Assembly (NCBI GenBank): GCA_965248545.1
Contig: OZ252110.1
Coordinates: 1,270,224-1,334,223, forward strand
Direction: 5' to 3'
DNA length: 64,000 nt
Source: Alteromonadaceae bacterium
GTDB lineage: Bacteria > Pseudomonadota > Gammaproteobacteria > Enterobacterales > Alteromonadaceae
A program made the translations under genes and the position numbers. Shown in pieces: positions 27,389 through 44,865 of this stretch (the first letter of the stretch is position 1; the number at the start of each line of letters is the position of its first letter). The notes below the pieces were generated by a model. The model had not been told where the DNA came from, ran no database searches, and saw nothing but the letters and a program-made list of their open reading frames with translations.

Positions 27389-30241
27389 TTAGAAAGTCCC
27401 TCTCAAGCCAATCGAGTAACGCGGCTCCTGCACGTTTTCGTATAAGAACTGGTCTCTGAATCGACCAAACTGTTTTTGGCTCTCACCGGTGATATTGAGC
27501 ACTTCAAAACTAACCGCAACATTATCGGTCAATTGATAAGAAGAGCTGAAATCCCACTGCGTGTACTCATCAAAAAAGACGGGTTCATTTGGAGCGCGAA
27601 GCTGATTTTCCGAAAATAAGAATTCGTCTCGCCAGTTGGCAGCCAAACGCGCTGAGAATTTGTCGTCCTCATAGAATCCAACCACATTCCAAGAGTCACT
27701 CAAACCGATCAATATTGACTGTTGAGAAAAATTGTTCGGATCAAACTCTGCATCACTGTCTACCGTCGTGTAGTTGGCTTGAACACCAAATCCAGTGTCG
27801 GCAAAGAGGTGTTGGATTGCGATTTCCCAACCGTCAATTGAGCGCTCCTTTGAGTTTAATGGTTTGGATGTCAAGAAAACTGCCGCTGGGTCACCCGCTT
27901 GACTGAAAACCGGTGTTGACACTTGGTTCGGCGATGTCGTAGGGACATAACGTCCTTGTGGATCAAGCAGCGGGTCACCATTAATATCCGGAATCGTATC
28001 TTCTAAAACTTCTGTGGCAATGTAGTCTTCAACTTCCTTATTGAAGAACGCGAGTGAGAAATAACTCCCTTCTGCATAATAGTATTCGTAGGAAAGATCC
28101 AAGTTGTAAGACGAATATGGTTTCAACCCTGGATTGCCCGCACTAGCCGTGCTGTTCCCCGGGCGATAGTCACTGACTGTCGTCAACGGGCGCAGCGCAT
28201 TTAGGTCTGGGCGCGCAATGCTCTTGCCGTATGAAATTCTCACCACATGATCATCTGCTGGCTCAACTTGGAAATCAATTGACGGCAAAAACACTGAGTA
28301 GTCCGCCTCAACCTCGAAGAATTCTGGTGCAGCATTTGGTGCGAAGATAACGGACCCCTCGGTATTGGTTGTAATTGACAATCCAATCGGGAATGTTTGG
28401 AATGCAGAGCCAATAACATCGGTTGACTCGTGACGTGCGCCTATGATGATTTGAGCAGGCATGTCGCCGAGGTCAAAGTCAGTCTCATAGTTCACGTAAA
28501 ACGCCGTAGATTCTTCCGATGCACCAAAGAAAGTGGGTGGGAACTGTTGCAAAATGCTGTCGATGGAATTTGGGAAAGCTTGGTTTACCAACGCATTAAC
28601 ATCAAATTCAACAACCACACCAAAGCCACTGGGGGCATCAATAAAGTTGCGAGTAAAATCATCTGCACAGCCAGTACAGGCATCCAAACCTTGGAAGAAA
28701 AAGCCCGTGCCAATCGCATTCGTTTCGACCTGATAATCTGTATATGAAGCGCCAGCCGAGATTGAATAAGTATCGCCCATCCAATTGCCTTCAAACTGAT
28801 ACTGATCTACCGTGTTTTCAATCGCAATATTTCTCAGTACTGAACCTAGTGGAGAGAAACCATCTACGTCTTGAAACTCAGTCACATTTGGACGTGGATC
28901 ACCACCACCAAACTGCTGCTGTCCACGGAATGCCCCCGAATCATCAACACCGATTGCAACACCGTTCTCGCTATAGTCAAGGGCGAAGTTGATGCCGAGT
29001 GGACCCTGTATCAGCTGCAAGTTATCGTTTAATTGTCCATCGGGTTGACTGACTGCCTCTGAGCTATGCGCATCAAACTCAAGAGACAAGCGGTCATTTA
29101 CTGTCCACTCTACATTGAGGCCGATAGAGTCATTTTCGATCACCAATTCATTTTCATAGACTAAAGCATCAGCAGCGCCACCGAGTCGATTCGCTTGGTC
29201 TACAGTGTAATTGCTGGTTAACCGAGTCCCCGTTACAGTGCTGCCATCAACAACACCAAACAGGCCTGTTTGATAACGGTCCTGATCACGTTTAAAACGC
29301 GACAATACATAGTCAGCAGTAATGATGAGGTCTTCCGTCGGCTGCGCTTGGAATACAAATTGCGCGTTGGTGCGACGGCGCTTGTTATGTTGGACTTCTG
29401 AAATGTTGGTTACCGGACGATAGACGTAAGGCGCATCACCACAATTTGAACTCGCATCGCCACACCATGCGGCGTAGCCACCGCCACCTTGCTCGTCTCG
29501 CAACCATCCATCTGTATGAGTAGATAGCTCACTAAATTGCCGTTCTGAATATGAGAAGTTAGCTAAGACACCAAATTTGCCATCGCCAAATGTGGTCGAA
29601 AACAATCCACCGAATTCGGGTGTAACGTCATCTCCTTCAATAACCGAAGCGTCATGGACAGCTGCGACATTCGCCAGAATAGTCGTGTCACTGTAATCAA
29701 ATGGTCGTGCCGTCTCAATATTAACGGTGGCGCCCATCCCCCCTGTCGGTTGGTTAGCTTTCGACGTCTTGTATACTTGGACGCCGGTAACAGATTCCGA
29801 CGCTATTTCCGCAAAATTGAACGCGCGGCTTTGTGTGGCAGACGCGATACTTTCTTGTTCAGGTGAAGAGGCTGCCGGCATTTGGCGACCGTTCAATGTT
29901 ACCATGTTGAAGTTTGGCCCTAAGCCGCGAACAGTAATTTGGTTACCTTCGCCATTTTGCCGATCAATTGAAACGCCGGTAATACGCTGGAGAGATTCGG
30001 CTAAGTTAGCATCGGGGAATTTACCGATATCTTCTGCAGTAATAGCATCTACGACCCCACTACTCGAACGTTTCAGATCCATGGATTGAACCAGGCTGCC
30101 TTTTATCCCTCTGACTTCAATCACTTCTACATCATCTGACTGTGTGTCTTGTTGAGCAGCGACTGCTAACGAATGAGAGCCTAAAATTGTGGCGACTGAC
30201 AATGCAATTAGGTTTGGTTTTAATTTTGTGTGCAATTTCAT
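27389..30241 (-). CDS. TonB-dependent receptor (sugar-type) of the xylan locus
   Basis: Signal peptide from ATG 30241 (GGAG upstream), VIEVRGI TonB box region, DAITAEDIGKFPDANLAESLQRITGV plug, C-terminal PRYSIGLRGTF. Confidence 0.95.
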   Translation of the reverse strand: MKLHTKLKPNLIALSVATILGSHSLAVAAQQDTQSDDVEVIEVRGIKGSLVQSMDLKRSSSGVVDAITAEDIGKFPDANLAESLQRITGVSIDRQNGEGNQITVRGLGPNFNMVTLNGRQMPAASSPEQESIASATQSRAFNFAEIASESVTGVQVYKTSKANQPTGGMGATVNIETARPFDYSDTTILANVAAVHDASVIEGDDVTPEFGGLFSTTFGDGKFGVLANFSYSERQFSELSTHTDGWLRDEQGGGGYAAWCGDASSNCGDAPYVYRPVTNISEVQHNKRRRTNAQFVFQAQPTEDLIITADYVLSRFKRDQDRYQTGLFGVVDGSTVTGTRLTSNYTVDQANRLGGAADALVYENELVIENDSIGLNVEWTVNDRLSLEFDAHSSEAVSQPDGQLNDNLQLIQGPLGINFALDYSENGVAIGVDDSGAFRGQQQFGGGDPRPNVTEFQDVDGFSPLGSVLRNIAIENTVDQYQFEGNWMGDTYSISAGASYTDYQVETNAIGTGFFFQGLDACTGCADDFTRNFIDAPSGFGVVVEFDVNALVNQAFPNSIDSILQQFPPTFFGASEESTAFYVNYETDFDLGDMPAQIIIGARHESTDVIGSAFQTFPIGLSITTNTEGSVIFAPNAAPEFFEVEADYSVFLPSIDFQVEPADDHVVRISYGKSIARPDLNALRPLTTVSDYRPGNSTASAGNPGLKPYSSYNLDLSYEYYYAEGSYFSLAFFNKEVEDYIATEVLEDTIPDINGDPLLDPQGRYVPTTSPNQVSTPVFSQAGDPAAVFLTSKPLNSKERSIDGWEIAIQHLFADTGFGVQANYTTVDSDAEFDPNNFSQQSILIGLSDSWNVVGFYEDDKFSARLAANWRDEFLFSENQLRAPNEPVFFDEYTQWDFSSSYQLTDNVAVSFEVLNITGESQKQFGRFRDQFLYENVQEPRYSIGLRGTF

Positions 30242-30474
30242 CGACTGTACTCCGTGCAGTATGCTGTTGGGCAATCGCCGCCAAACCTCATGACTGACTT
30301 TCGGTTCTAAGTTAAAAGTGTCCTGTGTTAACGTTTCTTTTCGGTCCAATTGACCTTGTTTTGGCAGACTCAGAAAATTTCAGAGTCTGGGTGTAAACGA
30401 TTTGTTAACGCATTCAAACTAGCAACGCCCCGAGATTGAATCAATTCCACATCTTTACGTTTTTTAACTTACAT

Positions 30475-30488
30475 AATTACGATTTATT
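30475..30488 (-). promoter_or_regulatory. Candidate XylR site upstream of the TBDR
   Basis: Minus strand AATAAATCGTAATT, matching sites upstream of tal, xylA and xylB. Confidence 0.5.
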
Positions 30489-30647
30489 TTAATCTGACCA
30501 ATGCCCCAAAAAAATCCCCAAAAGCCTCATAACCCGCATTTATATTAGAGATAACAATTCTGTTTTTGACGTGATAACTTTCACAAAAAATGAAACTAAA
30601 ATTAACCTTTAAATATTTTTTATCATATTTCATCACAAAAAAAGGCC

Positions 30648-30681
30648 AATAATTCGTAATGGTAAGAGCAAAATTCGTAAA
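30648..30681 (+). promoter_or_regulatory. Candidate XylR direct repeat upstream of tal
   Basis: AATAATTCGTAAT (30648-30660) and CAAAATTCGTAAA (30669-30681), period 21 bp. Confidence 0.55.
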
Positions 30682-30739
30682 AGCCCCCCCCTGCTCGATC
30701 CCTCATAATGTTAATTCTATTAACAAACGACTTTGTGCT

Positions 30740-31702
30740 ATGTCTAAACTAGATTCACTGAAAAAGATGACTGCAATAGTTGCTGACACAGGTGACTTAA
30801 AATCAATCACCAACACTAGGCCTCTTGATGCAACAACAAACCCATCTTTGTTGCTGAAAGCCGCAAAATCAGGGGTTTACAATCACTTATTGGAAAAAGC
30901 GAGTATCGGCGAAAACAATCAAAGACGCTCACCAAGCACAGCTGCAGAGATTTTTGCGGTCTTAATTGGTGCCGAAATTGCGGACATTGTACCTGGCAGA
31001 GTTTCCACCGAAGTGGACGCGCGCCTATCGTTTGATACGCATGCTATGGTAGAGACGGCAACGAGACTGATTGAATTATATGAACAACACGGTGTTGATC
31101 GCTCTCGGGTTCTGATCAAAATTGCGGCCACATGGGAAGGCATAAGAGCGGCTGAACAATTAGAGAAACAAAATATACAGTGCAATCTAACCTTGTTGTT
31201 TAATATGGCACAAGCGCGTGCGTGTGCTGAGGCGGGTGTGTATCTGATATCCCCGTTCGTGGGCCGTATTTACGACTATTATAAATTGGCTGACCCGGGT
31301 CGAAAGTTTACACCACAAAACGATCCTGGGGTGTTATCAGTAAAAGCCATATTCGAGTTTTATCGAGAGCACGATTTCAAAACGATTGTGATGGGTGCCA
31401 GTTTTCGGACTACCGAGCAAGTACTTGCGCTTGCTGGGTGTGATCGCTTAACCGTCTCTCCGAATCTGCTGCAAGCGCTCAATGAAGAAGATGGAGAGGT
31501 CGTGCAAACACTGCATGTGCCAACATCGAAGTCTGCGTTTGATACCCCGCGCCTGACGGAATCCGAGTTCCGATTTGCTTTGTGCACCGATCCTATGGCT
31601 AACACTAAACTTGCTGAAGGAATTGCACAGTTTTGTAAAGATCAAATCGCACTAGAAACCTTGCTAGACAATACACTCCAACAGGAGAGGCATTATGCAT
31701 AA
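30740..31702 (+). CDS. tal: Transaldolase
   Basis: IVADTGD, DATTNPSLL, VSTEVDARLS, LIKIAATWEG, NLTLLF, LISPFVGRI. Start ATG 30740. Confidence 0.97.
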   Translation: MSKLDSLKKMTAIVADTGDLKSITNTRPLDATTNPSLLLKAAKSGVYNHLLEKASIGENNQRRSPSTAAEIFAVLIGAEIADIVPGRVSTEVDARLSFDTHAMVETATRLIELYEQHGVDRSRVLIKIAATWEGIRAAEQLEKQNIQCNLTLLFNMAQARACAEAGVYLISPFVGRIYDYYKLADPGRKFTPQNDPGVLSVKAIFEFYREHDFKTIVMGASFRTTEQVLALAGCDRLTVSPNLLQALNEEDGEVVQTLHVPTSKSAFDTPRLTESEFRFALCTDPMANTKLAEGIAQFCKDQIALETLLDNTLQQERHYA

Positions 31703-32411
31703 GCAACAGCGAGAATTTGACCTAGACGCCCTGTCAGCGCAATTTTGGCAGAATGGCTACATCGTTATTGAGAACTTTTTTGAGTCTGACTTAATGAAGC
31801 AATGCCAAGAGACAATAATGGGTCATTTTGGTTTAACACCGGAATTTTTACACGATGAAAACTTTATCGAAGCGTCAAAAACCGAAGTGATCCCATGGTT
31901 TCCGCAACGCGAAGGCGTCGCTCTGTTCGATCGCGTTGAGCAGCTAGAAGCACTGCGAAGCCTAACTCAAGCGATTCTAAATTCGGGTTGGCAATCGCAA
32001 TATTGTATGGTGATGTTTTCAAAAAGTGGCACGAGCGGCCAAGCCTGGCACCAAGATTGTCCTCCCGAAGATCCGAGGTGCTTCAATTTAAATCGCCTAG
32101 TTTATACCATGGACGTAACGGACCAGACTGGTGGCGAAGTCTACATCTTGCCGCAAAGCCACAAGCGTGGAGCTTTGACAGAAGGTCCAGTGTTTGAAGA
32201 CTTTCCGGACCAAGTGAAATTAACGCCTGCCACAGGGACCTTGGTTCTGTTACATGGTCATTGTTGGCACCGCATCGGAGATATCAAAGGTGATTATCGC
32301 GTTTCAACTAACTATCGCGCTGCGCCACTCGGGGTCCCAGATGACATAACAGACATCTGCGTATATCGAAACATGCGCTATCAGTTTTCGACATCTCAAA
32401 TCGTCGGCTAA
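31695..32411 (+). CDS. Fe(II)/2-oxoglutarate dioxygenase, phytanoyl-CoA dioxygenase (PhyH) family
   Basis: FWQNGYIVIENF, WHQD (HxD), ILPQSHK, distal HGHCWH, YRVS. Start overlaps the tal stop by 8 bp. Confidence 0.88.
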   Translation: MHKQQREFDLDALSAQFWQNGYIVIENFFESDLMKQCQETIMGHFGLTPEFLHDENFIEASKTEVIPWFPQREGVALFDRVEQLEALRSLTQAILNSGWQSQYCMVMFSKSGTSGQAWHQDCPPEDPRCFNLNRLVYTMDVTDQTGGEVYILPQSHKRGALTEGPVFEDFPDQVKLTPATGTLVLLHGHCWHRIGDIKGDYRVSTNYRAAPLGVPDDITDICVYRNMRYQFSTSQIVG

Positions 32412-33373
32412 AGCTCCCTAACTGCCTCTATTTGTTCTTGAAAGGCGATGGAGGCATCCAAAGGAACCACTTCTGATTCCGTTTTGCCCAGTCTGATCGC
32501 ATCACAAACATGCTCGATTTGAAATTCAAAGCCCGAACCTTCACGCGGATCATTGAAACTCTTCTGCGGCTTCTCTAATTCGTACAAATGACACTCAGAT
32601 GCGCGCCAAAAATCAGGGATCTGAATGGTTCCTTTGGTACCAATGATAATCCCGACATTCGGTAACTTAGCTTTAAACGAAGTGTGCATAAATGCTGTGC
32701 TTTTTTCGTACTGCCACGTCCAGCATACGTCATCCTCGACCCCATTGGGTGCAAAGCGCTGCATTCCCGCTATGGATGTAGGTTGAATGGCATGCAACAA
32801 CCGGTTAAAGGCGATTGGGTATATCCCCATTTCGAGCAGACAGCCGCCCGCGAAATGTGCATCATATTCTCGCAATGACGGGGAATAGGGCAATGGGTAA
32901 CCAAAATCCGCTCGCACATGCAACAGCTCACCGATCTCGCCTGCTTTGACCCACTCTACCGCTTTTTGAATCGCCGGCAGAAAATATGTCCACATCGCTT
33001 CCATCAGAAAAATGTTGTGCTCTTGTGCAAGCTGCTTCAGATATCTCATGTCTTCACTGGACGTCACTATCGGTTTTTCGCACAACACGTGTTTCCCATT
33101 TCTGATTGCTTGCTCAACTTGCTCTTTATGCAAAGTATGCGGCGATGCAATGTATACAGCGTCGATATCTGGATGTTCAAAAATTCGGTCATAGCCTGCA
33201 TATGCCTCGGCGATACCATATTGGTCAGCGAATAACTGAGCTTTTGCCTGGTCTCTTGCTGCAACAGCCTGGATGATTGTGTTTTGACAAAACTTAATGT
33301 CTTTAGCAAAAGTGTGCGTTATGCGACCAGCGGTGATCACACCCCAACGAATCACCCCATCGTTACCCAACAT
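32408..33373 (-). CDS. Gfo/Idh/MocA oxidoreductase (related to dihydrodiol/D-xylose dehydrogenase)
   Basis: IRWGVI, DAVYIASPHTLH, HVLCEKP, FLMEAMWT, GGCLLEMGIYP. Confidence 0.92.
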   Translation of the reverse strand: MLGNDGVIRWGVITAGRITHTFAKDIKFCQNTIIQAVAARDQAKAQLFADQYGIAEAYAGYDRIFEHPDIDAVYIASPHTLHKEQVEQAIRNGKHVLCEKPIVTSSEDMRYLKQLAQEHNIFLMEAMWTYFLPAIQKAVEWVKAGEIGELLHVRADFGYPLPYSPSLREYDAHFAGGCLLEMGIYPIAFNRLLHAIQPTSIAGMQRFAPNGVEDDVCWTWQYEKSTAFMHTSFKAKLPNVGIIIGTKGTIQIPDFWRASECHLYELEKPQKSFNDPREGSGFEFQIEHVCDAIRLGKTESEVVPLDASIAFQEQIEAVREL

Positions 33374-33382
33374 AATGACCTC

Positions 33383-34939
33383 CTATCGACTTAACTCGTG
33401 TTCAAGCTGTTCAAGACTCTTGCCGCTTGTCTCCGGCAATAGTCGAATCACCAATACTAAACTGATAACGGCAAATACCGCATAAATTAAAAATGTCACT
33501 GCTGCCCCCAGATTCGCTAGCTCCCATGGAAACGCCAGCTGCACGATAAAACTCACAATACTATTGACCACACCAACAACCGAAATTGCTAAGCCGCGCA
33601 AATGATTTGGAAAAATTTCAGAAAATAGTACCCACATAACAGGACCGAGGGAAAACGCAAAGCACGCAACAAACCCCAAAATACCGACCAGTATCAACAC
33701 TGAATTGAGTGACGCTGATACCTGTATGATATGTCCTTGATTGGCTTGGAACACTGTTTCTCCGATCCGCTCAACGACCGCTTGCTTAAATTCAATATCA
33801 CTAGTGAACACATGGTTCACGAGTGGTTGTAGTTGGCTCACATCGACGTTAATGGCGAGTGCTTTCAGTGCTTCGGGTGTCAACTGGTATTGGGCTTCAC
33901 TGTAGCCATAAGCGCATATCAGCATGCTTACCACCACGCCAGACAAGCCAAAAATCAGCAGTGGCCGACGACCCAATCGGTCAATTAGTGCAATCGCAAC
34001 CAGGGTAAAAACAACGTTGATGATGCCCACCCAAATCGCCTGTGCAAAAGCTGCGTTCGTGCCGACGCCAGTTTGTTCAAAGATTGTCGGCGCGTAAAAA
34101 TAAATCGCATTGACGCCAGTCGCTTGTTGGGCAATTCCCACCACCAAACCAATCACTAACGCTGTTCGCATGGTGGGTCCAAAGATTTCCTTTAGATGCA
34201 TCAGAACATTGGTTTGACTAGTTTCTGCCGTCGCAGCAATTTCGCTAATATTGGATTGCAGCGATTCTTCATCTTGCTCAGGATACAGCTGCTTGAGAAC
34301 TTTAGAAGCTTCATCACTACGATGCTGCACAATCAACCATCTGGGGCTTCTTGGGATCACAAATAACAACAAAAAATAAAGCGTAGCGGGTACGATTTCG
34401 AGTCCAAGCATCCAGCGCCACGTTGCCTGATCAATCTTTGCCATAGTAACCCAGTCCAGCGAACTTTGACTAAGTTGCAACAAGAAGTAATTCGCAAAGT
34501 AGGCGACTGAGAAACCGATAACAATGTTGAGTTGATTGATCGAAACCATCTTCCCTCGAGCTTTGGCAGGAGCAATCTCAGCTATATACATTGGCGCTAT
34601 CATCAACGAACAAAACGCTAAACCACCAATAAAGCGAGCAACAACCAAGGCTGCATAGCTTGGCGCAAATGCAGAGAGTATGGCACTGAGCAGATATAGT
34701 GCTGCGATGATCATTAACGTGGTGCGTCGCCCAATACGGTCAGCAATGTAGCCCGCTGACAGGGTCGCAAGTATCCCCCCAAGCGTTGGCGCGGCTACCA
34801 CAAACCCTTGTTCAATATGATTTAATTCAAATTCAACGCTGATTAGCCCGACGGCGCCAGAAATGACTGAAGCGTCAAAACCAAAGATAAACCCACCCAT
34901 GGAAACAATCAGCGTGTAGAACAAAACCGGGTTGCGCAT
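33383..34939 (-). CDS. Sugar porter family MFS transporter (xylose or xylo-oligosaccharide candidate)
   Basis: GGFIFGFD, DRIGRR, PMYIAEIAP, PRSPRWL, QQATGVNAIYFYAP, DRLGRRPLL, SEIFP, PETSGKSLE. Confidence 0.95.
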   Translation of the reverse strand: MRNPVLFYTLIVSMGGFIFGFDASVISGAVGLISVEFELNHIEQGFVVAAPTLGGILATLSAGYIADRIGRRTTLMIIAALYLLSAILSAFAPSYAALVVARFIGGLAFCSLMIAPMYIAEIAPAKARGKMVSINQLNIVIGFSVAYFANYFLLQLSQSSLDWVTMAKIDQATWRWMLGLEIVPATLYFLLLFVIPRSPRWLIVQHRSDEASKVLKQLYPEQDEESLQSNISEIAATAETSQTNVLMHLKEIFGPTMRTALVIGLVVGIAQQATGVNAIYFYAPTIFEQTGVGTNAAFAQAIWVGIINVVFTLVAIALIDRLGRRPLLIFGLSGVVVSMLICAYGYSEAQYQLTPEALKALAINVDVSQLQPLVNHVFTSDIEFKQAVVERIGETVFQANQGHIIQVSASLNSVLILVGILGFVACFAFSLGPVMWVLFSEIFPNHLRGLAISVVGVVNSIVSFIVQLAFPWELANLGAAVTFLIYAVFAVISLVLVIRLLPETSGKSLEQLEHELSR

Positions 34940-34944
34940 CTTCT

Positions 34945-36111
34945 TCACCACCATTGCCCCTGGATCCAGGTTTCCTTGTTTTGGGTTTCAGCTAGCCATT
35001 TATCCAAGATTTCTGGGTTAGCATGAACTCGCGTGTCACCCCAGTAGCCTTGTGGACAAGTTGGCGTTCCTGCTGTTGCGTTCTTTGCGCAAAACCACAT
35101 CGGTTGGCTTTCCCAATGAGTATTAATGTATGCAAGTGCTTTTATGACGTCCTCATTTGCTTCGATAAATTCAAACAAGGGTCTATACCAACGCAGCCAA
35201 ACCTGCTCTGCAGTTACTTTTTTCTGATCATTCACTGATATATAACCCTGCGTAAGGGTCGTAAGGTTGTAAGCTTGAGGCGCGGCTTCAGCAATCATGA
35301 CTGGCTTGCCTTCCTTGCGAGCAAAATCCAATACTTTTTGTTGTGCCGAAGCAGGCGTATCCACCGGCGTATAATGCCATTGATGAAGATCGCGATAGAA
35401 TGTCGAAATCGAAACCCAATCTACTGCATCAGGCCCCGGATACCAGTCATTTAAATGCTGTGAGTTACGGTGGTCGTAGTCCTTTTCACGCTCGCCAGCA
35501 ATAGTGGGATCCGGCCAAGTAGCTGATTGCCAAACTGTCACAACATTGTCGGCGTTTTGTTCATTTAAAAGTTTAGCAATACGTCGATAAGCGCGCTTGT
35601 AAGTATCCTGCTGATAACAATTCCACGGGCCATCAAATTCATAACCAATACGCAGAAAAATCGGTCGAGGAGCTTGCGCCTTAAACCAATCAATCATGAA
35701 TGTAATTGACGCATCATAATCTCCATCTGCAATGTGTTTACCGTGATGGGGTTGATTGCAGCTATCGAAGGCCAGGCCCACCGCAAGAGCGGCAAATGGA
35801 GCTTGTGTTAGTGTATGGGTAAAATCTACCTCGCCGGCATGCCAATTACTCACTTGTCGGAGGCCAAACAAGGTTTGTTGCGGATCAGCCGATTTTATCT
35901 GGGTGTAAAGAGTCACACCTTCAAGCTGATCTTGCGGAACTGCGGATTGATAGTCATTAATCGTGTCCGTGTCTTGTCCCATGAACAACAACCGCTGTCC
36001 CGGTTTGAGCGGAACATACTGTTCATTGACGAGTCTGGTGACACTCTGGCTATGACAGGCGACGAGCAAGCCCGCGAATGTCAGTACTTTGGCAAATCGT
36101 GCTATCTTCAT
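34945..36111 (-). CDS. GH26 lipoprotein, probable endo-beta-1,3-xylanase
   Basis: Lipobox LVAC. GQD near the N-terminus, acid/base LRIGYEFDGPWN, WYPG..VDW, nucleophile GKPVMIAEAAPQ, W...W..P.F, YIN..W.SQ..W, GYWGDTRV.AN. As I recall the sequences, this motif series follows the Vibrio GH26 beta-1,3-xylanases rather than mannanases. Confidence 0.8.
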   Translation of the reverse strand: MKIARFAKVLTFAGLLVACHSQSVTRLVNEQYVPLKPGQRLLFMGQDTDTINDYQSAVPQDQLEGVTLYTQIKSADPQQTLFGLRQVSNWHAGEVDFTHTLTQAPFAALAVGLAFDSCNQPHHGKHIADGDYDASITFMIDWFKAQAPRPIFLRIGYEFDGPWNCYQQDTYKRAYRRIAKLLNEQNADNVVTVWQSATWPDPTIAGEREKDYDHRNSQHLNDWYPGPDAVDWVSISTFYRDLHQWHYTPVDTPASAQQKVLDFARKEGKPVMIAEAAPQAYNLTTLTQGYISVNDQKKVTAEQVWLRWYRPLFEFIEANEDVIKALAYINTHWESQPMWFCAKNATAGTPTCPQGYWGDTRVHANPEILDKWLAETQNKETWIQGQWW

Positions 36112-36283: not shown

Positions 36284-37903
36284 ATGAATACAATGACCGA
36301 TAACCCTATCTTGCCGGGCTTTCACCCGGACCCATCCATCGTGCGTAGCGGTGATGATTACTATATTGCAACCTCAACGTTCGAGTGGTACCCAGGGGTT
36401 TGTATCTACCATTCCAATGACTTAAAAAACTGGCGACTGGTGGATCGGCCACTCAGCAGTCTCGAGCACTTGGATATGCGGGGTAACCCAGACTCATGTG
36501 GTGTCTGGGCGCCATGTTTAACCATAAAATCAGGGATTTTTTATCTCGCGTTTACCAATACCCGTCGATTTGCGGGGAATTTCAAAGATACGCCTAATTA
36601 CTATATTTACGCAGACGCGATAGGTGGGCCATGGTCTGAGCCGGTCTATGTGAACAGTAGCGGATTTGATCCGTCTCTCTTTCACGATGATGACGGTAAG
36701 AGCTATTGGCTCAATATGGTGTGGGACCACCGTCCAGCTAAAGGGCGCAACAACTTTGCGCCAAATGCGTTTTTTGCGGGGATCATGTGTCAGCAAATCA
36801 ATCTATCTAACGGTCAGCTGGTGGGAGAAGCCAAGATGATATACCCCGGCTCATCTATCGGGTTGACTGAAGGGCCGCATATTAAGAAACGCGACGATTT
36901 TTATTACCTGATTACTGCGGAGGGGGGTACTGGCACTCAGCACGCAGTTTCAGTTGCACGTGCTAAACGTATTTTTGGCCCGTACGAAACCGCTCCAAAC
37001 AACCCTTTGATTACCAGTGCATTGTCTCCAAGTATAGGGCTAAAGCGCTCTGGTCACGGTGATTGGGCTGAGACTGATAACGGAGAGGGTGTACTTGTAC
37101 ACTTGAGCAGTCGCCCCCTGACATACCGCGGGCGCTCGGTCATGGGCCGCGAGACCGCTATGCACAAGATCAGTTGGACTACTGATGGCTGGCCGATTTT
37201 GAGTCATGGTGAAAATGCACCATTAGAGCCTATGTCTGAAGAGACGATGAAGGCAAACGCCGTTGACGAACATGTCAATTTTGCAACGGACACGTTGCCT
37301 ATGACCTATCATAGTCTGCGCTACCCAATCGAATCAAAACACGCATATGTAGACCGTCAGCGAGGCCAATATTGCCTGCTTGGTCAAGAGAGTATCGGTA
37401 GCCATTTTCAACAGAGTCTATTGGCTCGCCGGCAACAGGCTTTCGTGTACGATTACAGCCTTACACTTGACTTTCAACCAGCCTCCTTTCAGCAAATGGC
37501 TGGTCTAACTTGTTATTACAATAGCCAGAAATTTTTCTATCTGCACATAACACATGACGAGACGCTCGGGCGCGTGTTAGATATAGCATTCTGCGCAGGT
37601 GAGTGGACAATGCGTTATCCACAGGCAGAGCCTATCTCCCTCCCAGAAAGCGGCACGGTCGGTTTAAAAGTAAAGGTCGACCATGATATCGCTATATTCG
37701 CTTATCAGTTGGAAGGTGAGGATTGGCGAGAGCTTGATGTACGGCTTGATTACAGTGTGCTATGCGATGAATTGGGTGATGGCGGAGCAGACGCGAACTT
37801 TACGGGCAGTTTTGTTGGATTTTGTTGTCAAGATCTAACCGGGCAGAACCAGCCCGCTTTTTTTGACCATTTGCGCTATCAAGAATACCCAAGTCAACCT
37901 TAA
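36284..37903 (+). CDS. GH43 beta-xylosidase with C-terminal beta-sandwich (beta-1,3-xylosidase candidate), cytoplasmic
   Basis: GFHPDPSI (base), WAP, GFDPSLF, TEGPHI (acid), GHGD, GRET, GGADANFTGSFVG. No signal peptide. Confidence 0.92.
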   Translation: MNTMTDNPILPGFHPDPSIVRSGDDYYIATSTFEWYPGVCIYHSNDLKNWRLVDRPLSSLEHLDMRGNPDSCGVWAPCLTIKSGIFYLAFTNTRRFAGNFKDTPNYYIYADAIGGPWSEPVYVNSSGFDPSLFHDDDGKSYWLNMVWDHRPAKGRNNFAPNAFFAGIMCQQINLSNGQLVGEAKMIYPGSSIGLTEGPHIKKRDDFYYLITAEGGTGTQHAVSVARAKRIFGPYETAPNNPLITSALSPSIGLKRSGHGDWAETDNGEGVLVHLSSRPLTYRGRSVMGRETAMHKISWTTDGWPILSHGENAPLEPMSEETMKANAVDEHVNFATDTLPMTYHSLRYPIESKHAYVDRQRGQYCLLGQESIGSHFQQSLLARRQQAFVYDYSLTLDFQPASFQQMAGLTCYYNSQKFFYLHITHDETLGRVLDIAFCAGEWTMRYPQAEPISLPESGTVGLKVKVDHDIAIFAYQLEGEDWRELDVRLDYSVLCDELGDGGADANFTGSFVGFCCQDLTGQNQPAFFDHLRYQEYPSQP

Positions 37904-38418
37904 CAACCGGAAGTGGTGAGCGTAATCGTCGGCTCTGCCCCTGCCGCTGTGGGGGCGATATAGGTAATGTAACAATTGCCCGTTGTTATCGGCACATTGT
38001 TGACTTTCTGGCCGGCACCACTCTGTGAAAGTGAGGCAGTAGTTAACACGACTCGCTGCGGACTTAAACGCGAACTCCATGCCCATTCGGAAGCAAAATC
38101 ACCGCTAAGTGCCAACGTGATACCTGTACTCCTAGCATCACTGGGGTAGCCGTATTCGGTATCAATATCGCCGGTCCCATCGCCGTCTAAATCCACGCTC
38201 GCGGTCGCCTGTTGATGAACATTTTGAATAATGGCCTTAGAGAAAACCAATTGACCCGCCGTTTTTATGACCCCTTCCATACCTTCCAAGGTGGCAACAT
38301 TGGCATCACTACTTAGATTGATAAATCGAGGGGCTGCGGTGACAGCCAATATGCCGAGGATAACAATTACGATAATGAGTTCAATAAGCGTAAAGCCAGA
38401 ATTTCTGAAGTGTTGCAT
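37900..38418 (-). CDS. Type IV pilin / MSHA-like prepilin
   Basis: Class III signal FRNSG/FTLIELIIVIVILGILAVTAAPRF, MshA-like alpha helix, C-terminal Cys pair (NCY...SGC*). Confidence 0.88.
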   Translation of the reverse strand: MQHFRNSGFTLIELIIVIVILGILAVTAAPRFINLSSDANVATLEGMEGVIKTAGQLVFSKAIIQNVHQQATASVDLDGDGTGDIDTEYGYPSDARSTGITLALSGDFASEWAWSSRLSPQRVVLTTASLSQSGAGQKVNNVPITTGNCYITYIAPTAAGAEPTITLTTSGC

Positions 38419-38507
38419 AAACGGCCGGATAAAAACCAAAGTATTAGCCAAACGATATAGTAGCTGGGGAGCGAATGTCTACAGGGTTTAACGTGTCAAT
38501 GATAAAA

Positions 38508-38588: not shown

Positions 38589-39908
38589 TTAGCCAAAAAT
38601 AACGCGATTGACCTTGTTTTCAAGTAACTCCTGACGGCCTGAACGATGCCGTGGCTGCAAATCAAGTTTTTGCGCTTTGGTGGCTAGTTGGTCAAGCGAA
38701 AGTTTCCCTGCCAGTACATCTTGCCCCAATTCACTGCTCCACCCTTTGTATCGTTGTGCCACACTTTCAGATAAGAAGTCACCTTCAATCAATTTAGCTG
38801 CGTGCTTCAACGCGATTGCTATATTATCCATTGCGCCTATATGACCATAAAACATATCGGCTGGATCATTGCTCTGTCGACGGAGTTTTGTATCAAAATT
38901 AAATCCACCTGTAGTGAAACCACCAGATTTTAAAATTTCGTATACAACCAATGTCAATTCATCGACATCAATAGGGAACTGATCAGTATCCCAGCCGTTT
39001 TGAGGATCTCCTCGGTTGGCATCTAAGCTGCCAAAAATCCCCAGTGAAATCGCCGTTGCTACTTCGTGATGGAATGAATGACCCGCAAGAGTTGCATGGT
39101 TGGTTTCAATATTTACGGCAAATTCATTCTCTAGACCGAACTGTTTCAAAAAGCCGTAAACCGTTGCAGTGTCGTAATCATATTGATGTTTAGTAGGCTC
39201 TTGCGGTTTTGGCTCAATGAGCAAAGTGCCTTTAAAGCCGATTTTATGCTTGTGCTCAACGACCATACTCAAGAACCGTCCCATCTGCTGACGCTCTTGT
39301 CGCAAATCCGTATTTAGCAGCGACTCATAACCTTCTCGGCCACCCCAAAGCACGTAATTTTCACCACCGAGACGATGGGTAGCATTCATTGCTTGACACA
39401 CTTGCGCAGCCCCGTATGCGAACACCTCGGGATTTGGATTTGTGGCGGCTCCAGCTGCAAAACGTGGATTACTAAATAGATTAGCGGTTCCCCACAATAA
39501 CTTAACCCCAGTCTGCGCTTGTTTTTCGGCGAGATCTTCAACCATTTCACTAAAATTTGCCGTGTAGGAGGCTAAATTGTGGCCTTCCGGCGCAACATCG
39601 ACGTCGTGAAAGCAATAGTAAGGGATGCCGAGTTTACTGAAAAACTCAAATGCCACATCCGCCTTTTGTTTCGCACGCTGCATAGCATCACCGGGTTGCA
39701 ACCATGGTCTGCCAAAGGTCCCTTGTCCAAAGACATCTGCGCCGTCCCAACAAAAGTTATGCCAGTAACAAGCTGCAAAACGCAAATGCTCCTGCATTGA
39801 TTTACCTAAAACTTTCTCGTCGGCATTGTAATGGCGAAAGGCCAGTAAGTTATCAGACTCTGGCCCTTCATAGGCTACCTTTTCAATCGAATCAAAGTAA
39901 TCAGCCAT
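38589..39908 (-). CDS. xylA: Xylose isomerase (class II)
   Basis: [54 protein letters not shown]. Confidence 0.98.
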
Positions 39909-39967
39909 AGTGTAGTTTCCTGTTTCTCAATCTTTATTGGATTATTCTGCTATCGCGCTTGCGCGAC

Positions 39968-39981
39968 AATTACGTAATTTC
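39968..39981 (-). promoter_or_regulatory. Candidate XylR site upstream of xylA
   Basis: Minus strand GAAATTACGTAATT, 60 bp upstream of the ATG. Confidence 0.55.
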
Positions 39982-40014
39982 ATTTGCCTATTGTGCTTCT
40001 TCGTAACATTGTTT

Positions 40015-42021
40015 TTACAAACTGAAGTGTTGCACTGTGGCGGTGACGATCGCACTTTTAGTCAAACCAAAATGCTCATACAAGTGTTCAGCCGGTGCCG
40101 ATTCACCAAAACTGTTGACAGCAAAAACCCGTCCATCAAGACCCACATATTGATACCAAGGTTGTGCGCAAGCGGCTTCAATCGCCACCCTTTTTCGGCA
40201 CGCGTCAGGTAAGACAGTGTTTTTGTATGCCGCTGATTGTTGATCGAATCGATTCATACACGGCATCGAGATCAGGTTAACGTTAATTCTATACCGTTGT
40301 CGCAGCTCCTCGCAGACCTGTAGTGCCAGCGATACCTCTGAACCCGCTGACATTACAAGAATGTCAGGCTCATCTGCGTCTGTTTGAAGCACGTAGCCGC
40401 CTCTTTCAATTAGGGCAGGATTCGACAGCCCATTGGTTACTGCGGGTAGCCCTTGGCGAGACAAGCACAACGCAGAAGGCATTCGTTGCTGTTCTGCCGC
40501 ACACAACCATGCCACCGTCGTTTCAAGTTGATCACATGGCCGCCAAGTGTCTAGGTTTGGGGTTGCGCGCAAATTCGCTATTTGCTCAACTGGCTGGTGA
40601 GTCGGCCCATCTTCTCCCAATCCAATCGAGTCGTGAGTGAAGACATAGATGGTTGGCAACTTCATCAATGCTGACATGCGCACAGCATTGCGGGCGTATT
40701 CCATGAACATCAAGAAAGTCGCACCAAAGCACTTGAGCCCGCCATGGGCATTGACCCCATTGGCGATAGCTGCCATACCGAATTCTCGCACGCCATAATG
40801 CAGGTATTGCCCCTGAGGATTGTGGTGCGCAAATGCTTCGGCTTGCCTCCATTGCGTTAGATTTGACGGCGCTAAATCAGCTGACCCTCCGACGAGCTCG
40901 GGCAATAGCGGTTTAATCCTGTCGAGGGCGGTTTGCGATGATTTTCGGGAAGCTTGTTTATTTGCCTGAGCTTGTGTTTCTGTGATGATTCTTTCTTTAC
41001 CTGCGTCCCAACTGTATGGCAACTGTCCCGACATTCGTCGTTGAAACTGTTCAGCCAGCTCTGGATACAATTCCGCATACTGCTTAAACGCAGCAAGCCA
41101 TTCGGACTCCGCTTGCTGGCCTGACACTTTTGCATCCCAAGCTGCTCGGATATTCTCGAGCAGTTCAAACGGTGTTTGTGGCCAGCCAATTTGCTGCTTA
41201 AAAAGCGCGATTTCTTCTTGACCCAAAGGCGCGCCATGACATTCGTGGGAGCCAGCTTTATTGGGCGCCCCTTCACCAATATTGGTTTTACAGCAAATAA
41301 GTGTAGGTTGGCGCGAGCACTTGGCACGTTCAATGGCGGAATCAATTGCCATGTGATCATGTCCATCAACCTTGTCTATGACTTGCCAGCCATAGCTCTC
41401 GAAGCGCTTCGCTGTGTCATCAGTGAACCAGCCATCGACTTCGCCATCGATTGAAATGCCATTGTCATCATAAAACACGATGAGTTTGTTCAATTGCCAG
41501 GTACCGGCCAACGATGCTACTTCATGTGAAATCCCTTCCATCAAACAACCATCACCCACGAAACAGTAAGTAAAATGGTCGACGATTTGATGGTTAGGGT
41601 GGTTAAACTCGGCAGCTAGCATTCGCTCCGCTAGCGCAAAACCGACGGCATTGGCAAGACCTTGCCCCAGCGGTCCAGTCGTTGTCTCCACTCCTGGTGT
41701 GTAACCGAGTTCAGGATGACCTGGGGTTTTTGAATGCAACTGTCGAAAGTTCTTAAGGTCTTCAAGCTCAACATCATAGCCCGTCAAGTAAAGTAGGCTA
41801 TAGAGCAGCATTGAGCCATGGCCATTAGACAGAACAAAACGGTCGCGGTTGTACCACTCTGGATTTGAAGGGTTGTGACGTAAGTGTTTCGCCCACAATA
41901 CCTGAGCAATGTCGGCCATGCCCATCGGCATTCCGGGATGCCCAGAGTTGGCCTGTTGTACCGCGTCAACACTTAATACTCGAATGGCATCCGCCATTTG
42001 TTTTGCGTCAAATTCGGTCAT
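40015..42021 (-). CDS. tkt: Transketolase
   Basis: [34 protein letters not shown] ThDP motif, [19 protein letters not shown] at 42021 overlaps the xylB stop (ATGA). Confidence 0.98.
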
Positions 42022-43493
42022 GTTAACTGCTCCCATATACGTCGTTGACTGGCTTGTTCTGAAAACTGTTTAAAATATGAATAACGGTGATTGTGTACCT
42101 CTGTCATCTCAGGTCTAGGCAAGTGTGACGCAATTGCTGCGGGCGCTGGACATATTGCTTCAATGTCTCGTTCAGGGTGCAGTGCTAACTGTGCCAATCG
42201 CGCTGCTCCTAGAGCAGGTCCAACGTCACCTCCCTCACGATAGACAATTGCGACTTCAAGCACATCAGCAATTAATTGGCGCCAAAATTTACTGCGTGCG
42301 CCACCACCGATTATGGAAATTTCGGACGGAAAAACGCCCGCTTCATGCATTACCTCAAGCCCGTTCTTAAAAGCAAACGCAATGCCTTCAAGGATGGCAT
42401 AAGTCATATTTGCACGTGTAGTGGATGCTGAAATTCCGACAAATTCACCGCCCATACTAGGATTGTTGTACGGGGTGCGCTCGCCGCTGAGATATGGCAA
42501 AAAGAATCCGTTTGAGTCAGGTGTAACATCGCTGTTTTCAAGCTCATCAAGCAACGTATCCACTGAGCCTTGTGCGGCAATATCTGCAAACCACTGCAGG
42601 CATGAAGCGGCACTTAGATGAACTGACATAACGTGCCATTTGCCGGGAATAGCATGACAAAAACTGTGCAGTGCACGTTTAGGGTTTGAGAGATACCGCT
42701 CCGAAGCAGAAAACAATACACCCGACGTGCCAAGCGATAAAATTGTTTGCCCATCAAACACTACACCACTGCCTACCGCGCCCGCTGCATTGTCACCGCC
42801 ACCACCCGCGATGGGCACAGCAGACATTCCCCAACGATTGGCAAGAGACATGTGCAGCCGGCCGGTGATCTGATTACCCTCACACAACTCGGGCATCTGT
42901 GCCGCTGTTAGGCCACACGCTGCGAGCATAGGCGCTGACCAGTCGCGTTTCGCAACATCTAACCAACTCGTGCCGGCCGCATCTGACATATCGCTATAAA
43001 AGGTTCCGCATAGCAGAAAGCGGATATAGTCTTTTGGTAACAGTACCTTGGCGACTCGAGAAAATAAGTCCGGTTCATTGTTCGCCACCCACAATAATTT
43101 AGGTGCGGTAAATCCCGGCATCACCAAGTTGCCTGTGATCCCATGCACATCCTTTACACGATTTGTCAGTAAGTCACATTCTGCGGCGCTCCGTCCATCA
43201 TTCCACATAATAGCGGGGCGCAATACTTCGTTGTTTTCATTAAGTAATACTGCACCATGCATTTGCCCCGTCAATCCGATGGCTGTGACGCGTCTCGTCA
43301 TCCCTTTGTGAGCGAGTTTATCCAAGCACTCTGAAACCGCTAACCACCAATCGAGGGGCTGTTGCTCAGACCACATTGGGCGAGGGTTCTGTACTGACAA
43401 TGGCTCAGAATGGCTACCTATCACTGCGCCTTGCTCGTCGCAGATGACCACTTTGACACCCGAAGTGCCAATATCAATTCCCATGTACGCCAT
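42018..43493 (-). CDS. xylB: Xylulokinase
   Basis: [54 protein letters not shown]. Confidence 0.97.
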
Positions 43494-43548
43494 GTTTAAA
43501 CCCTTTTAATTAGTCATTATTTAGACTAAAGATAGAGCGACTTCTGGC

Positions 43549-43562
43549 AATTACGAAAATTC
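43549..43562 (-). promoter_or_regulatory. Candidate XylR site upstream of xylB
   Basis: Minus strand GAATTTTCGTAATT, 56 bp upstream of the ATG, in the xylB/xylR divergent region. Confidence 0.55.
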
Positions 43563-43698
43563 ACATTCGCTGTTGATATTTCTTACAGTTCATTTGCCAC
43601 TTTGATAAAAAACGTTATTCTGAATCGGTGAAAACGAAGCTATGCTGGTCTGTGCACCACATACATTGCAGTAAAAAACGTAAAAGCTGAGTTGAAGA

Positions 43699-44865
43699 AT
43701 GTTCGATGTGCGTCACAGCATTAGCTTGCTGTTTAATGCCAATAAGGTATACGACCGGCAAGTTATAGCTGGAATCGGAAATTATTTACAAGCCTCTAAA
43801 GTCAATTGGGACATATATTTAGAGGAAGATTTTTTATGTCGTTTACAGCACATAGAGGAATGGTCTGGAGATGGCATTATTGCCGACTTTGATGACGCTA
43901 CCATCCGCGAGGCACTTAAGGGGATCAACAAACCCATTATCGGTGTTGGCGGTTCCTATCAGGATGAAAGTGCTTATCCTAGTGTTCCGTATGTCGCTAC
44001 TGACAATCACAAGTTGGTCGAAGACGCCTACAAGCATTTAAAAAATAAAGCACTGGAACGCTTCGCCTTCTACGGCATCCCCCATGATGATTCTCATTGC
44101 TGGGCACGAGAGCGCAAGCAGTCATTCTTTCAATTAACCGAAGCGGATGGATACAAATGCCATTATTTTGAAGGAATCCCAACGACTCCTGACACATGGC
44201 AATATGCGATGAATCGATTGTCGGACTGGTTGCAGCGACTACCAAAACCGATCGGGATTTTGGCCGTCACTGATAGCCGGGCTCGGCATATTTTACAAGC
44301 CTGTGATCAAACCAATATTGCAGTACCTGATATGGTCTCCGTCATCGGCATAGACAATGATGAAATTGCTCGGCATCTGAGTCGAATCAGTCTGAGTTCA
44401 GTGAGCCAAGGTTGTGTTGAAATGGGGTATCGAGCAGCAAAGCTGCTACACAATCGGCTGACGACTGAATCAGAAAAACTGCCTCGGATTCTGGTACCAC
44501 CTACCGGTGTAATTGAGCGACAATCGACGGATTATCAGTCCCTACGTGATCCTTTCGTCATTCAAGCCATGCAGTTTATTCGACAGAATGCCACTCTCGG
44601 CATCAAAGTAGAGCAGGTCACCGACTATGTCGGTATGTCACGTTCAAATCTCGAACCCCGTTTCGTTGCGGAACGTGGCCACACGGTTCACGTGGAAATC
44701 CACAATGAGAAACTGCGCCGAGCCTGCAGATTACTCAAAACAACGGAGATGCCGACCAAAGAAATTGCGCAACTGTGTGGTTATCCATCGATACAATACA
44801 TGTACGCCGTATTTAAAAAGCACTTTAATCAAACGCCAAAACAGTATCGAGGCGAAGAAAAATAG
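43699..44865 (+). CDS. xylR: Xylose operon activator XylR (periplasmic-binding-protein-like N-domain plus AraC HTH)
   Basis: FNANKVYDRQVIAGIG, DGIIADFD, YVATDN, VIGIDN, SLSSV, C-terminal AraC (CGYPSIQYMYAVFKK). Confidence 0.95.
   Translation: MFDVRHSISLLFNANKVYDRQVIAGIGNYLQASKVNWDIYLEEDFLCRLQHIEEWSGDGIIADFDDATIREALKGINKPIIGVGGSYQDESAYPSVPYVATDNHKLVEDAYKHLKNKALERFAFYGIPHDDSHCWARERKQSFFQLTEADGYKCHYFEGIPTTPDTWQYAMNRLSDWLQRLPKPIGILAVTDSRARHILQACDQTNIAVPDMVSVIGIDNDEIARHLSRISLSSVSQGCVEMGYRAAKLLHNRLTTESEKLPRILVPPTGVIERQSTDYQSLRDPFVIQAMQFIRQNATLGIKVEQVTDYVGMSRSNLEPRFVAERGHTVHVEIHNEKLRRACRLLKTTEMPTKEIAQLCGYPSIQYMYAVFKKHFNQTPKQYRGEEK

Follow-up and report, generated by a model that had tools for sequence, protein, structure and literature searches.

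A candidate TonB-dependent receptor locus for the use of beta-1,3-linked algal xylan in an Alteromonadaceae bacterium

Introduction

How would a marine bacterium whose genome encodes neither GH10 nor GH11 xylanases make use of algal xylan? The question is raised by a 17.5-kb gene cluster (positions 27389 to 44865) in a stretch of 64,000 nucleotides from an Alteromonadaceae bacterium (GenBank assembly GCA_965248545.1, contig OZ252110.1, positions 1,270,224 to 1,334,223), hereafter the window, to which coordinates refer unless a genome position is named. The cluster combines genes for a TonB-dependent receptor (TBDR), a glycoside hydrolase family 26 (GH26) lipoprotein, a major facilitator superfamily (MFS) transporter and a cytoplasmic GH43 enzyme with xylA, xylB, xylR, tkt and tal. 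A sequence-only reading of the window had taken it for a self-contained locus serving the use of beta-1,3-xylan, and all nine genes that it named (9/9) were found in place by open reading frame (ORF) mapping and Pfam/NCBIfam scans. With moderate confidence, we regard the cluster as a TBDR-type locus for the use of beta-1,3-linked algal xylan or its oligosaccharides; it exemplifies a kind of locus already catalogued in 2025, with an endo-enzyme from a branch without assays. The analysis establishes gene content, homology, catalytic residues, predicted fold, conserved synteny and the lack of other xylanase families in the genome, while substrate linkage, enzyme location, MFS cargo and regulation are what we infer.

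Beta-1,3-xylan, a polymer of siphonous green algae and some red algae, represents a sizeable and little-studied marine carbon pool. The only pathway that has been worked out experimentally is the ATP-binding cassette (ABC) transporter system of Vibrio sp. EA2, established by Sun et al. (ISME J 2025, PMC12125979) and composed of two secreted GH26 xylanases, an ABC importer, the MFS transporter XylT, cytoplasmic GH43 and GH3 enzymes, XylA/XylB and the xylose-sensing regulator XylRA. The same study catalogued 47 loci in 11 families and listed loci containing TonB-dependent transporters (TBDTs) for Colwelliaceae and Cellvibrionaceae; its Colwellia and Gilvimarinus entries hold a TonB-dependent receptor, an MFS transporter, tal, tkt, a 'predicted dehydrogenase' and a dioxygenase (PMC12125979). 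As the Vibrio route has been resolved and TBDT loci listed there, the earlier description of the pathway as little explored was overstated. For Alteromonadaceae, Colwellia-type bacteria, Shewanella and Cellvibrionaceae, knowledge of the TonB-receptor versions is confined to gene lists, and our literature search turned up no published experimental work on beta-1,3-xylan systems of the TBDR type in Gammaproteobacteria. The locus described here leaves the known picture unchanged; it provides a compact example of the TonB-receptor version from a complete genome and supplies targets for enzymology.

The GH26 lipoprotein

The candidate endo-enzyme of the locus, P0001 (34945..36111, minus strand), is a 388-aa lipoprotein of the GH26 clan that is unmatched by Pfam and NCBIfam, even at E=10. 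The GH26 call of the sequence-only reading nevertheless holds, its basis being the homology of P0001 to GH26 xylanases of solved structure, with XYL4 the nearest and the catalytic glutamate pair intact. A sequence search of the PDB returned XYL4 (2DDX/3VPL, E=1.4e-35) and AlXyn26A (E=5.5e-22), the matches being exclusively GH26 xylan-active enzymes and including zero mannanases. A profile built from 35 members of the P0001 clade scored XYL4 at 8.4e-63 (215 bits), AlXyn26A at 2.7e-34 (122 bits) and the lichenase CtLic26A at 1.6e-7, with mannanases weaker than 7e-4. The AlphaFold2 model of P0001 (predicted local distance difference test, pLDDT, 92) gave a parallel ranking in Foldseek, with template modelling (TM) scores of 0.88 for 2DDX, 0.82 for 7XJR, 0.74 for the lichenase and at most 0.56 for mannanases; the leading matches were all GH26 enzymes and the model has the (beta/alpha)8 fold of this family. 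A mannanase or lichenase function was rejected on account of profile and TM scores far weaker than those for XYL4.

The predicted acid/base E158 (in YEFDGPWN) and nucleophile E275 (in IAEAAPQ) align with Glu147 and Glu243 of AlXyn26A and with their XYL4 counterparts, and both are invariant in the 35 clade members. Q46, Y69, F238, W333 and W357 are invariant too and match positions that contact the sugar in AlXyn26A, and W163 is likewise conserved; the sugar-contacting residues common to XYL4 and AlXyn26A are all retained in P0001. In the loop that sets mixed-linkage specificity, P0001 reads PQGYWGDTR, close to NEGYWGDSR of XYL4, against FPWHDWKDAR in the mixed-linkage xylanase (MLXase). The clade has signatures of its own: a five-residue insertion in loop1 with Cys118, Cys165 following GPWN, and a nine-residue insertion in loop2 bracketed by the invariant Cys341 and Cys352. 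The positions of these cysteines suggest two disulfides around the cleft.

P0001 thus shares with XYL4/TxyA-type enzymes (2DDX, 3VPL) the (beta/alpha)8 fold, both catalytic glutamates, the stacking aromatics and the GYWGD(S/T)R motif, but differs in carrying neither CBM31 nor CBM6, in having a lipobox instead of a secretion signal, in its loop insertions and in belonging to a separate clade. AlXyn26A (PDB 7XJR) represents the mixed-linkage xylanases that GH26 also includes (JBC 2023, PMC10470212). Like it, P0001 is a single-domain protein of similar size from the xylan-active branch of GH26 with an extended loop1; unlike it, P0001 has XYL4-type sequence where the MLXase has the tunnel-forming PWHDW (Trp296, Trp299), and the similarity is weaker than to XYL4. 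Specificities of GH26 xylanases are reported to overlap (PMC12706835).

The lipobox of P0001 (LVAC, Cys19) is followed by His at position +2, and the protein consists of a single catalytic domain with no carbohydrate-binding module (CBM). A lipobox is present in most marine members of the clade. Under the +2 rule of E. coli, the residue after the lipoprotein cysteine governs sorting to the outer membrane, and P0001 is expected to be sorted there.

Pairwise identity between P0001 and XYL4 is 32% (E=1e-46). In a tree of 108 sequences, P0001 falls within a fully supported clade of 51 rows, apart from the XYL4/CBM31 clade. Its members come from Shewanella, Saccharophagus, Thalassotalea, Colwellia, Ferrimonas, Psychrosphaera, Marinibactrum and Algibacillus, and include actinobacterial proteins named endo-1,3-beta-xylanase by NCBI. 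A word-prefiltered search found 820 homologues at E <= 1e-5, which are mostly annotated as 'hypothetical' because Pfam and NCBIfam miss lipoproteins of the P0001 type. The survey of Sun et al. required identity >35% and E <1e-50 (PMC12125979), thresholds that would miss P0001 when compared with XYL4, which served as a proxy for Xyn26B (95.6% identical). Entries for Thalassotalea, Shewanella, Saccharophagus, Ferrimonas and Psychrosphaera do not appear in Table S7 part 1/2 of that survey (PMC12125979). A widespread GH26 clade falls under both common annotation and survey thresholds.

Our literature search found no published activity data for any member of the P0001 clade. A comparable published description concerns Xyn49 and Xyn89 of Gilvimarinus xylanilyticus, 40-kDa single-domain GH26 proteins from the secretome on 1,3-xylan that share 31-34% identity with Xyl4; attempts at expression in E. 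coli failed, and the proteins are uncharacterised (PMC9638140). P0001 is of the same size and identity class, a likeness drawn from the published description only, and Xyn49 and Xyn89 may belong to its clade. On this sequence evidence, P0001 is a candidate beta-1,3-xylanase from an uncharacterised clade.

The GH43 xylosidase

The second hydrolase, P0002 (36284..37903, plus strand), has no signal peptide and is a predicted cytoplasmic exo-beta-xylosidase composed of a PF04616 propeller and a C-terminal ConA-like domain PF17851 (GH43 plus GH43_C2). Over residues 5-535 it matches 1YRZ (2.1e-151), 2EXH (4.3e-136) and 3C2U (2.5e-133) in the PDB, which makes it a full-length relative of the GH43 beta-xylosidases 1YRZ, XynB3 and SXA. 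The subfamily of these entries, and hence of P0002, we take to be number 11 (GH43_11).

The sequence-only reading had equated this enzyme with XloA of the Vibrio system, and here it did not hold. Vibrio sp. SM6 carries an XYL4 homologue (80% identical), but no GH43 gene lies near the XYL4-like genes of either SM6 or V. coralliilyticus in the loci that were fetched. The single GH43_11 of SM6, identified by a whole-genome search, sits in the arrangement xylB-xylR-[ORF]-xylA-GH43-tal-tkt, and its relatives include a V. maritimus protein and a UniRef entry named 'xylan 1,3-beta-xylosidase'; V. maritimus is among the species listed with a xul-like locus in the survey tables (PMC12125979). Members of the XloA-type clade are at least 55% identical to the SM6 enzyme, whereas P0002 is 40% identical to it, and in the tree two separate clades, neither of them inside the XloA-type one, are made up of the GH43 enzymes that go with P0001-type GH26 genes. 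By sequence, P0002 is not an XloA orthologue.

The XloA-type Vibrio enzyme itself matches the beta-1,4-xylosidase 1YRZ best, and sequence therefore cannot assign the linkage specificity of a GH43. A comparison of PDB scores as a discriminator between beta-1,3- and beta-1,4-xylosidases was rejected for this same preference.

Conservation of the locus among relatives

Clusters of the same composition, with amino acid identities of 40-93%, were found in the 75%-identical relative L005, in Thalassotalea agarivorans (G016), in genomes G010 and G058, in Colwellia-type genomes, in Cellvibrionaceae AOL6, in Saccharophagus and in Shewanella sp. WXL01. The description of the source as Alteromonadaceae-like is consistent with this distribution, as relatives from the same family include Thalassotalea, Colwellia and Algibacillus. 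Partner genes were counted over 15 related loci: GH43 and TBDR genes are each present in 13 (13/15), the PhyH-family dioxygenase discussed below in 12/15, the Gfo/Idh/MocA oxidoreductase (GfoDH) and the sugar porter each in 8/15, and MFS_2 in 4/15. Since the same genes recur jointly in these loci, their clustering is not due to chance. TBDR, GH26 and GH43 thus form a conserved unit, which bears out the proposal of a TBDR-based locus, and some relatives add a secreted XYL4-type enzyme to it.

The latter cases provide the best indirect link of the P0001 module to beta-1,3-xylan. In two Colwellia-type loci, an XYL4-type GH26 (62% identical to XYL4) is encoded beside the P0001-type GH26 (L021, 1554-2531; L022, 18511-19488), and the Saccharophagus locus (L015, 12837-17396) holds an XYL4-type GH26 of 1519 aa that is 44% identical to XYL4 and has no Pfam match. 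As relatives keep a secreted XYL4-type enzyme and the window lacks one, the version in the window is a reduced one.

The trait is patchy within the family, being present in 13 of 401 sampled species, 12 of 59 genera and none of five congeners (0/5). Loss contributes to this pattern, because congeners hold decayed or core-only versions. A decayed locus in one congener (L026, G004:C114:1-14000) retains a C-terminal fragment of xylR (aa 241-384), the pilin-like gene, GH43 (74%), a GfoDH fragment (aa 262-320) and PhyH (78%), and both GH26-MFS and xylB-tkt-xylA have been deleted; in another congener, G005, only xylR-xylB-xylA remain. From these remnants it follows that the xylose core and the glycan module are separable. 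A recent island insertion was considered and rejected, given that there is no integrase or tRNA, GC content is unremarkable and a decayed copy exists in a congener.

A GH26 homologue of Teredinibacter sp. ISS155 (L002, 10001-11139) extends over two frames (residues 7-197 and 197-385), and the usual partner genes were not found within 10 kb of it; a pseudogene or an assembly error is possible.

Other carbohydrate-active enzymes in the genome

The sequence-only reading had noted that GH10, GH11 and debranching enzymes were missing from the window. This holds by Pfam, and genome-wide searches revealed neither GH10 nor GH11 in the complete 4.198-Mb genome, a single contig of 4,198,446 bp; nor was a second GH26-like gene found there, the Pfam GH26 model matching nothing genome-wide. 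Within the 64-kb window, Pfam identified no further carbohydrate-active enzyme among the remaining ORFs of 110 aa or more, some 35 in number once a few overlapping shadow ORFs are set aside. The genes xylA, xylB, xylR, GH43, PhyH and GfoDH are single-copy in the genome, whereas the tal and tkt genes of the locus are additional copies whose housekeeping paralogues elsewhere are 56% (tal) and 60% (tkt) identical.

A second TBDR locus lies at ~1.90 Mb of the same genome (L017, C1:1897000-1916900) and encodes SapC, a tryptophan halogenase, a TBDR, a CBM9 protein, a kinase-like protein, GH94, MFS_2, GH3, MFS_1, GH1 and a further MFS_2. It was rejected as a related xylan locus, the GH94, GH3, GH1 and MFS_2 genes indicating a beta-glucan or cellodextrin type.

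Transport

The TBDR (27389..30349, minus strand) contains Plug and barrel domains and scores 621 bits on TIGR01782 (cut-off 310), which places it in the carbohydrate-type TonB-Xanth-Caul subfamily. Translation probably begins at Met37 (30241), a start that uncovers a signal peptide and agrees with a gene call of 950 aa. Orthologues adjoin GH26 in 13/15 related loci, and the TBDRs of relatives match the locus TBDR better than any other TBDR of the genome, the matches being reciprocal best ones.

The only inner-membrane carrier in the locus is an XylE-like MFS transporter of 523 aa (33383..34954, minus strand), which belongs to the sugar-porter family and reaches 318 bits on the XylE model, under its cut-off. 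No MFS_2/GPH gene is present in the locus, and the GPH genes of the genome sit in the unrelated beta-glucan locus; in Saccharophagus and Shewanella, a GPH (MFS_2) carrier is encoded beside GH43, in place of or in addition to the sugar porter. Because the sole inner-membrane carrier is a sugar-porter MFS and the GPH genes lie elsewhere, the route of oligomers to the cytoplasmic GH43 is the weakest link of the model.

A paralogue of the porter elsewhere in the genome (207991-209535) is 59% identical over 520 aa. The locus porter is ~60 aa longer than its Shewanella orthologue owing to an insertion after about residue 352, which, judging from the near full-length alignment, is probably shared by this paralogue.

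Probable regulation by XylR

The regulator gene xylR (43699..44865, plus strand) encodes a LacI-type xylose-binding domain fused to an AraC helix-turn-helix (PF22177, PF13377, PF12833), the architecture of E. coli XylR and Vibrio XylRA, and the protein is 59% identical to XylR of Vibrio sp. SM6. The 24 Vibrio XylRA sites in Table S6 of Sun et al. (PMC12125979) were turned into a position weight matrix (PWM). This matrix identified an operator-like site upstream of GH43 in the divergent GH26/GH43 intergenic region (36195..36233, plus strand; 18.1 bits), which is its second-best match genome-wide, and another upstream of xylA (39963..40001, minus strand; ...TGAAATTACGTAATTG), which a box search also found. 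The 16-mer CAATTACGWAAWTTCA is perfect only upstream of xylA and xylB, its second copy lying in the divergent xylB/xylR region (43548..43563, plus strand) as located by sequence search. The XylR-type operator appears as an AT-rich direct repeat ending in CGTAATTG, with operator-like sites at 36195, 39963 and 43548, and the putative operators at GH43, xylA and xylB agree with the Vibrio XylRA motif, which has been validated experimentally. The three divergent promoter regions have no exact 8- to 10-mer in common. Co-regulation of the locus genes by xylose is plausible from these sites.

Comparison with known systems

GH26, GH43, xylA, xylB, a transporter and a regulator, the set by which the survey of Sun et al. 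recognised its loci, GH3 being accepted there in place of GH43, are clustered within the 17.5 kb. In common with EA2 and the catalogued loci, the window has GH26, a cytoplasmic GH43, xylA, xylB, an MFS carrier and an E. coli-type xylose-sensing XylR. EA2 differs in having an ABC importer whose binding protein is specialised, an XylT of the GPH type, two secreted xylanases (488 and 582 aa) and an extra GH3; in their stead the present locus encodes a TBDR, a sugar-porter MFS and a single lipoprotein of 388 aa, and its GH43 is not of the XloA/Xyl43 type.

The locus also resembles the Xanthomonas/Caulobacter CUT loci in combining a TonB-Xanth-Caul TBDR beside glycoside hydrolases with an inner-membrane MFS transporter and a regulator, and in the outer-membrane uptake of oligomers that this arrangement implies. 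However, the GH10/GH30 xylanases, glucuronidases and GPH transporters of those loci, which serve beta-1,4-xylan, are not present here. A polysaccharide utilization locus of the Bacteroidota type (SusC/SusD) was rejected, as Pfam gave no SusD-family match among the scanned window proteins and no SusD-like lipoprotein is adjacent to the receptor.

The dioxygenase, dehydrogenase and pilin-like genes

Three genes within the interval had not been listed before: a PhyH-family Fe(II)/2-oxoglutarate dioxygenase (31695..32411, plus strand; Pfam), the cytoplasmic Gfo/Idh/MocA NAD(P) oxidoreductase GfoDH (32408..33373, minus strand; Pfam/NCBIfam) and a prepilin-type N-methylation-motif protein (37900..38451, minus strand; Pfam/NCBIfam). 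In an alignment of 13 PhyH orthologues, H119-x-D121, H189/H192 and R202 are invariant and the HxD...H triad is intact. PhyH has no sequence match in the PDB, and its structure model is poor (pLDDT 63), with fold matches that identify it merely as an Fe/2-oxoglutarate oxygenase. The nearest solved relative of GfoDH is a dimeric dihydrodiol / D-xylose dehydrogenase (2O48, E=3.7e-45), and in each of the eight related loci with GfoDH it adjoins the sugar porter. PhyH recurs in Flammeovirga loci as well. In Table S8 of Sun et al., a dioxygenase is listed 11 times and a dehydrogenase 26 times, including Flammeovirga, and the main text is silent on them (PMC12125979). Both genes accompany these loci with no assigned role.

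The pilin-like gene is 83% identical to its counterpart in the decayed locus of congener G004; neither the 75%-identical relative L005 nor any of the other genera compared carries it. It is probably a lineage-specific passenger or insertion outside the pathway.

Proposed pathway and alternative explanations

In the pathway that we propose, the GH26 lipoprotein would be an endo-xylanase of the retaining type, E158 serving as its acid/base and E275 as its nucleophile; working on the cell surface or in the periplasm, it would cut chains or oligomers of beta-1,3-xylan. The dedicated TBDR would carry oligomers across the outer membrane, the MFS carrier of the locus would pass small products over the inner membrane, and the cytoplasmic GH43_11 exo-xylosidase would free xylose. 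XylA and XylB would then yield xylulose-5-phosphate, which the additional Tkt and Tal copies would route into glycolysis, and XylR would turn the genes on when sensing xylose. PhyH and the Gfo/Idh/MocA dehydrogenase would perform an additional cytoplasmic step. As the genome lacks a secreted, CBM-bearing XYL4-type xylanase, the cell may depend on the surface enzyme alone or on oligomers freed by other bacteria, and this variant of the system may mark an oligosaccharide-scavenging lifestyle.

Several observations weigh against use of beta-1,3-xylan by this route. The P0001 clade appears to hold no assayed enzyme and its similarity to XYL4 is low (just 32% identity), and clade-specific loop insertions lie by the active site, loop1 having the length of the MLXase lid loop. 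The enzyme has no CBM, and a genome search found no secreted xylanase to attack insoluble polymer. P0002 lies outside the XloA-type clade and scores 509 bits against 1YRZ versus 402 bits against the XloA-type Vibrio enzyme, a difference of the kind that does not separate the two linkages. The MFS transporter is an XylE-like monosaccharide-type porter, while Saccharophagus and Shewanella use a GPH carrier by GH43. The sequence-only reading is right in kind and partly supported. Its picture of a self-contained system starting from polymer is doubtful, since the catabolic genes are present but a secreted CBM-bearing xylanase and, in the locus, a GPH-type importer are not. The beta-1,3-xylan specificity that it proposed stands insofar as the GH26 is nearest to XYL4, whereas the overlap of specificities leaves mixed-linkage xylan a limited share of the probability.

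It is conceivable, though unlikely, that the true substrate is the mixed-linkage beta-1,3/1,4-xylan (MLX) of red algae of the Palmaria/Porphyra type, with the GH26 cleaving by the beta-1,3 kinks and GH43_11 then shortening the beta-1,4 segments in the manner of flavobacterial MLX systems. GH26 does hold the characterised MLXase class, of which AlXyn26A is the second-best match of P0001, and the loop1 insertion is of MLXase-like length, with loop2 even longer; moreover, one study found XYL4 active towards MLX, and purely beta-1,3-linked oligomers are cut by MLXases (PMC10470212, PMC12706835), and the GH43 is as near to beta-1,4-xylosidases as to anything else. On the other hand, P0001 is much nearer to XYL4 than to AlXyn26A (profile 215 versus 122 bits, TM 0.88 versus 0.82), it has the XYL4-type GYWGD motif and not Trp296 of the MLXase +1/-1 site, there is no GH10 in the genome for the beta-1,4 stretches, and relatives pair the P0001 clade with XYL4-type enzymes. 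A rather improbable explanation is that the locus is a regulon for scavenging xylose or generic xylo-oligosaccharides by cross-feeding, in which the GH26 would play a minor part, trimming in the periplasm and not breaking down polymer, and the TBDR and GH43 would take any small xylo-oligomer. The genome's only xylA, xylB and xylR genes do sit here, no secreted or CBM-bearing xylanase was found genome-wide, the GH26 is lipid-anchored with no CBM, the MFS transporter is of the monosaccharide type, and the congeners G005 and G004 have, respectively, kept only xylR-xylB-xylA and lost GH26-MFS. Yet GH26, TBDR, GH43 and PhyH stay associated across the boundaries of genera and families, which favours a dedicated glycan, and lipoprotein glycanases are a known route of surface display in marine Gammaproteobacteria.

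We consider it highly improbable that some other beta-linked glycan, such as beta-1,3-glucoxylan or another algal hemicellulose, is the target of the GH26-like protein, with PhyH and the dehydrogenase processing a non-xylose or modified sugar imported by the sugar porter. The uncharacterised clade with its own Cys-stapled loops around the cleft would fit such a role, as would the conservation of PhyH and of the GfoDH-sugar porter pair, which are superfluous to the isomerase pathway; against it, the sugar contacts common to XYL4 and AlXyn26A are all kept and every related locus is tied to xylA/xylB or GH43 xylosidases. A broader proposal, which we put forward tentatively and regard as doubtful, is that the lipoprotein GH26 clade, its own TBDR, the distinct GH43_11 lineage, PhyH and GfoDH with the porter form a conserved module across Gammaproteobacterial families that is mechanistically unlike the Vibrio xul system. 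The GH26 would then stand for a third class of specificity, for instance one restricted to oligomers or tolerant of glucoxylan, with lid loops stapled by disulfides, and PhyH and the dehydrogenase would oxidise a xylan-derived sugar.

Gene organization and neighbouring genes

The remaining genes of the locus are tal, encoding transaldolase (30659..31702, plus strand; Pfam), xylA, encoding xylose isomerase (38589..39908, minus strand; NCBIfam), tkt, encoding transketolase (40015..42036, minus strand; Pfam), and xylB, encoding a xylulokinase of the FGGY family (42018..43493, minus strand; Pfam). By orientation and overlaps, the transcription units appear to be TBDR, tal-phyH, GH26-MFS-gfoDH, GH43, xylB-tkt-xylA(-pilin) and xylR; the start of phyH overlaps the end of tal by 8 bp. 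A scan for sigma-70 promoters and terminators did no better than chance, with the sole exception of a strong bidirectional terminator hairpin with a 16-bp stem (27328..27367, no strand assigned), which marks the left border between the AraC gene on the plus strand and the TBDR gene on the minus strand.

This AraC regulator, with an arabinose-binding-type domain (26332-27327), and a short-chain dehydrogenase/reductase (25523-26308) flank the TBDR, an arrangement kept only in the 75%-identical relative. Directly to the right of the locus are two genes for sigma factors of the extracytoplasmic function type (47508-50558), which no evidence ties to the locus; one encodes a protein with DUF6596 and the other a protein of 550 aa with a long C-terminal extension.

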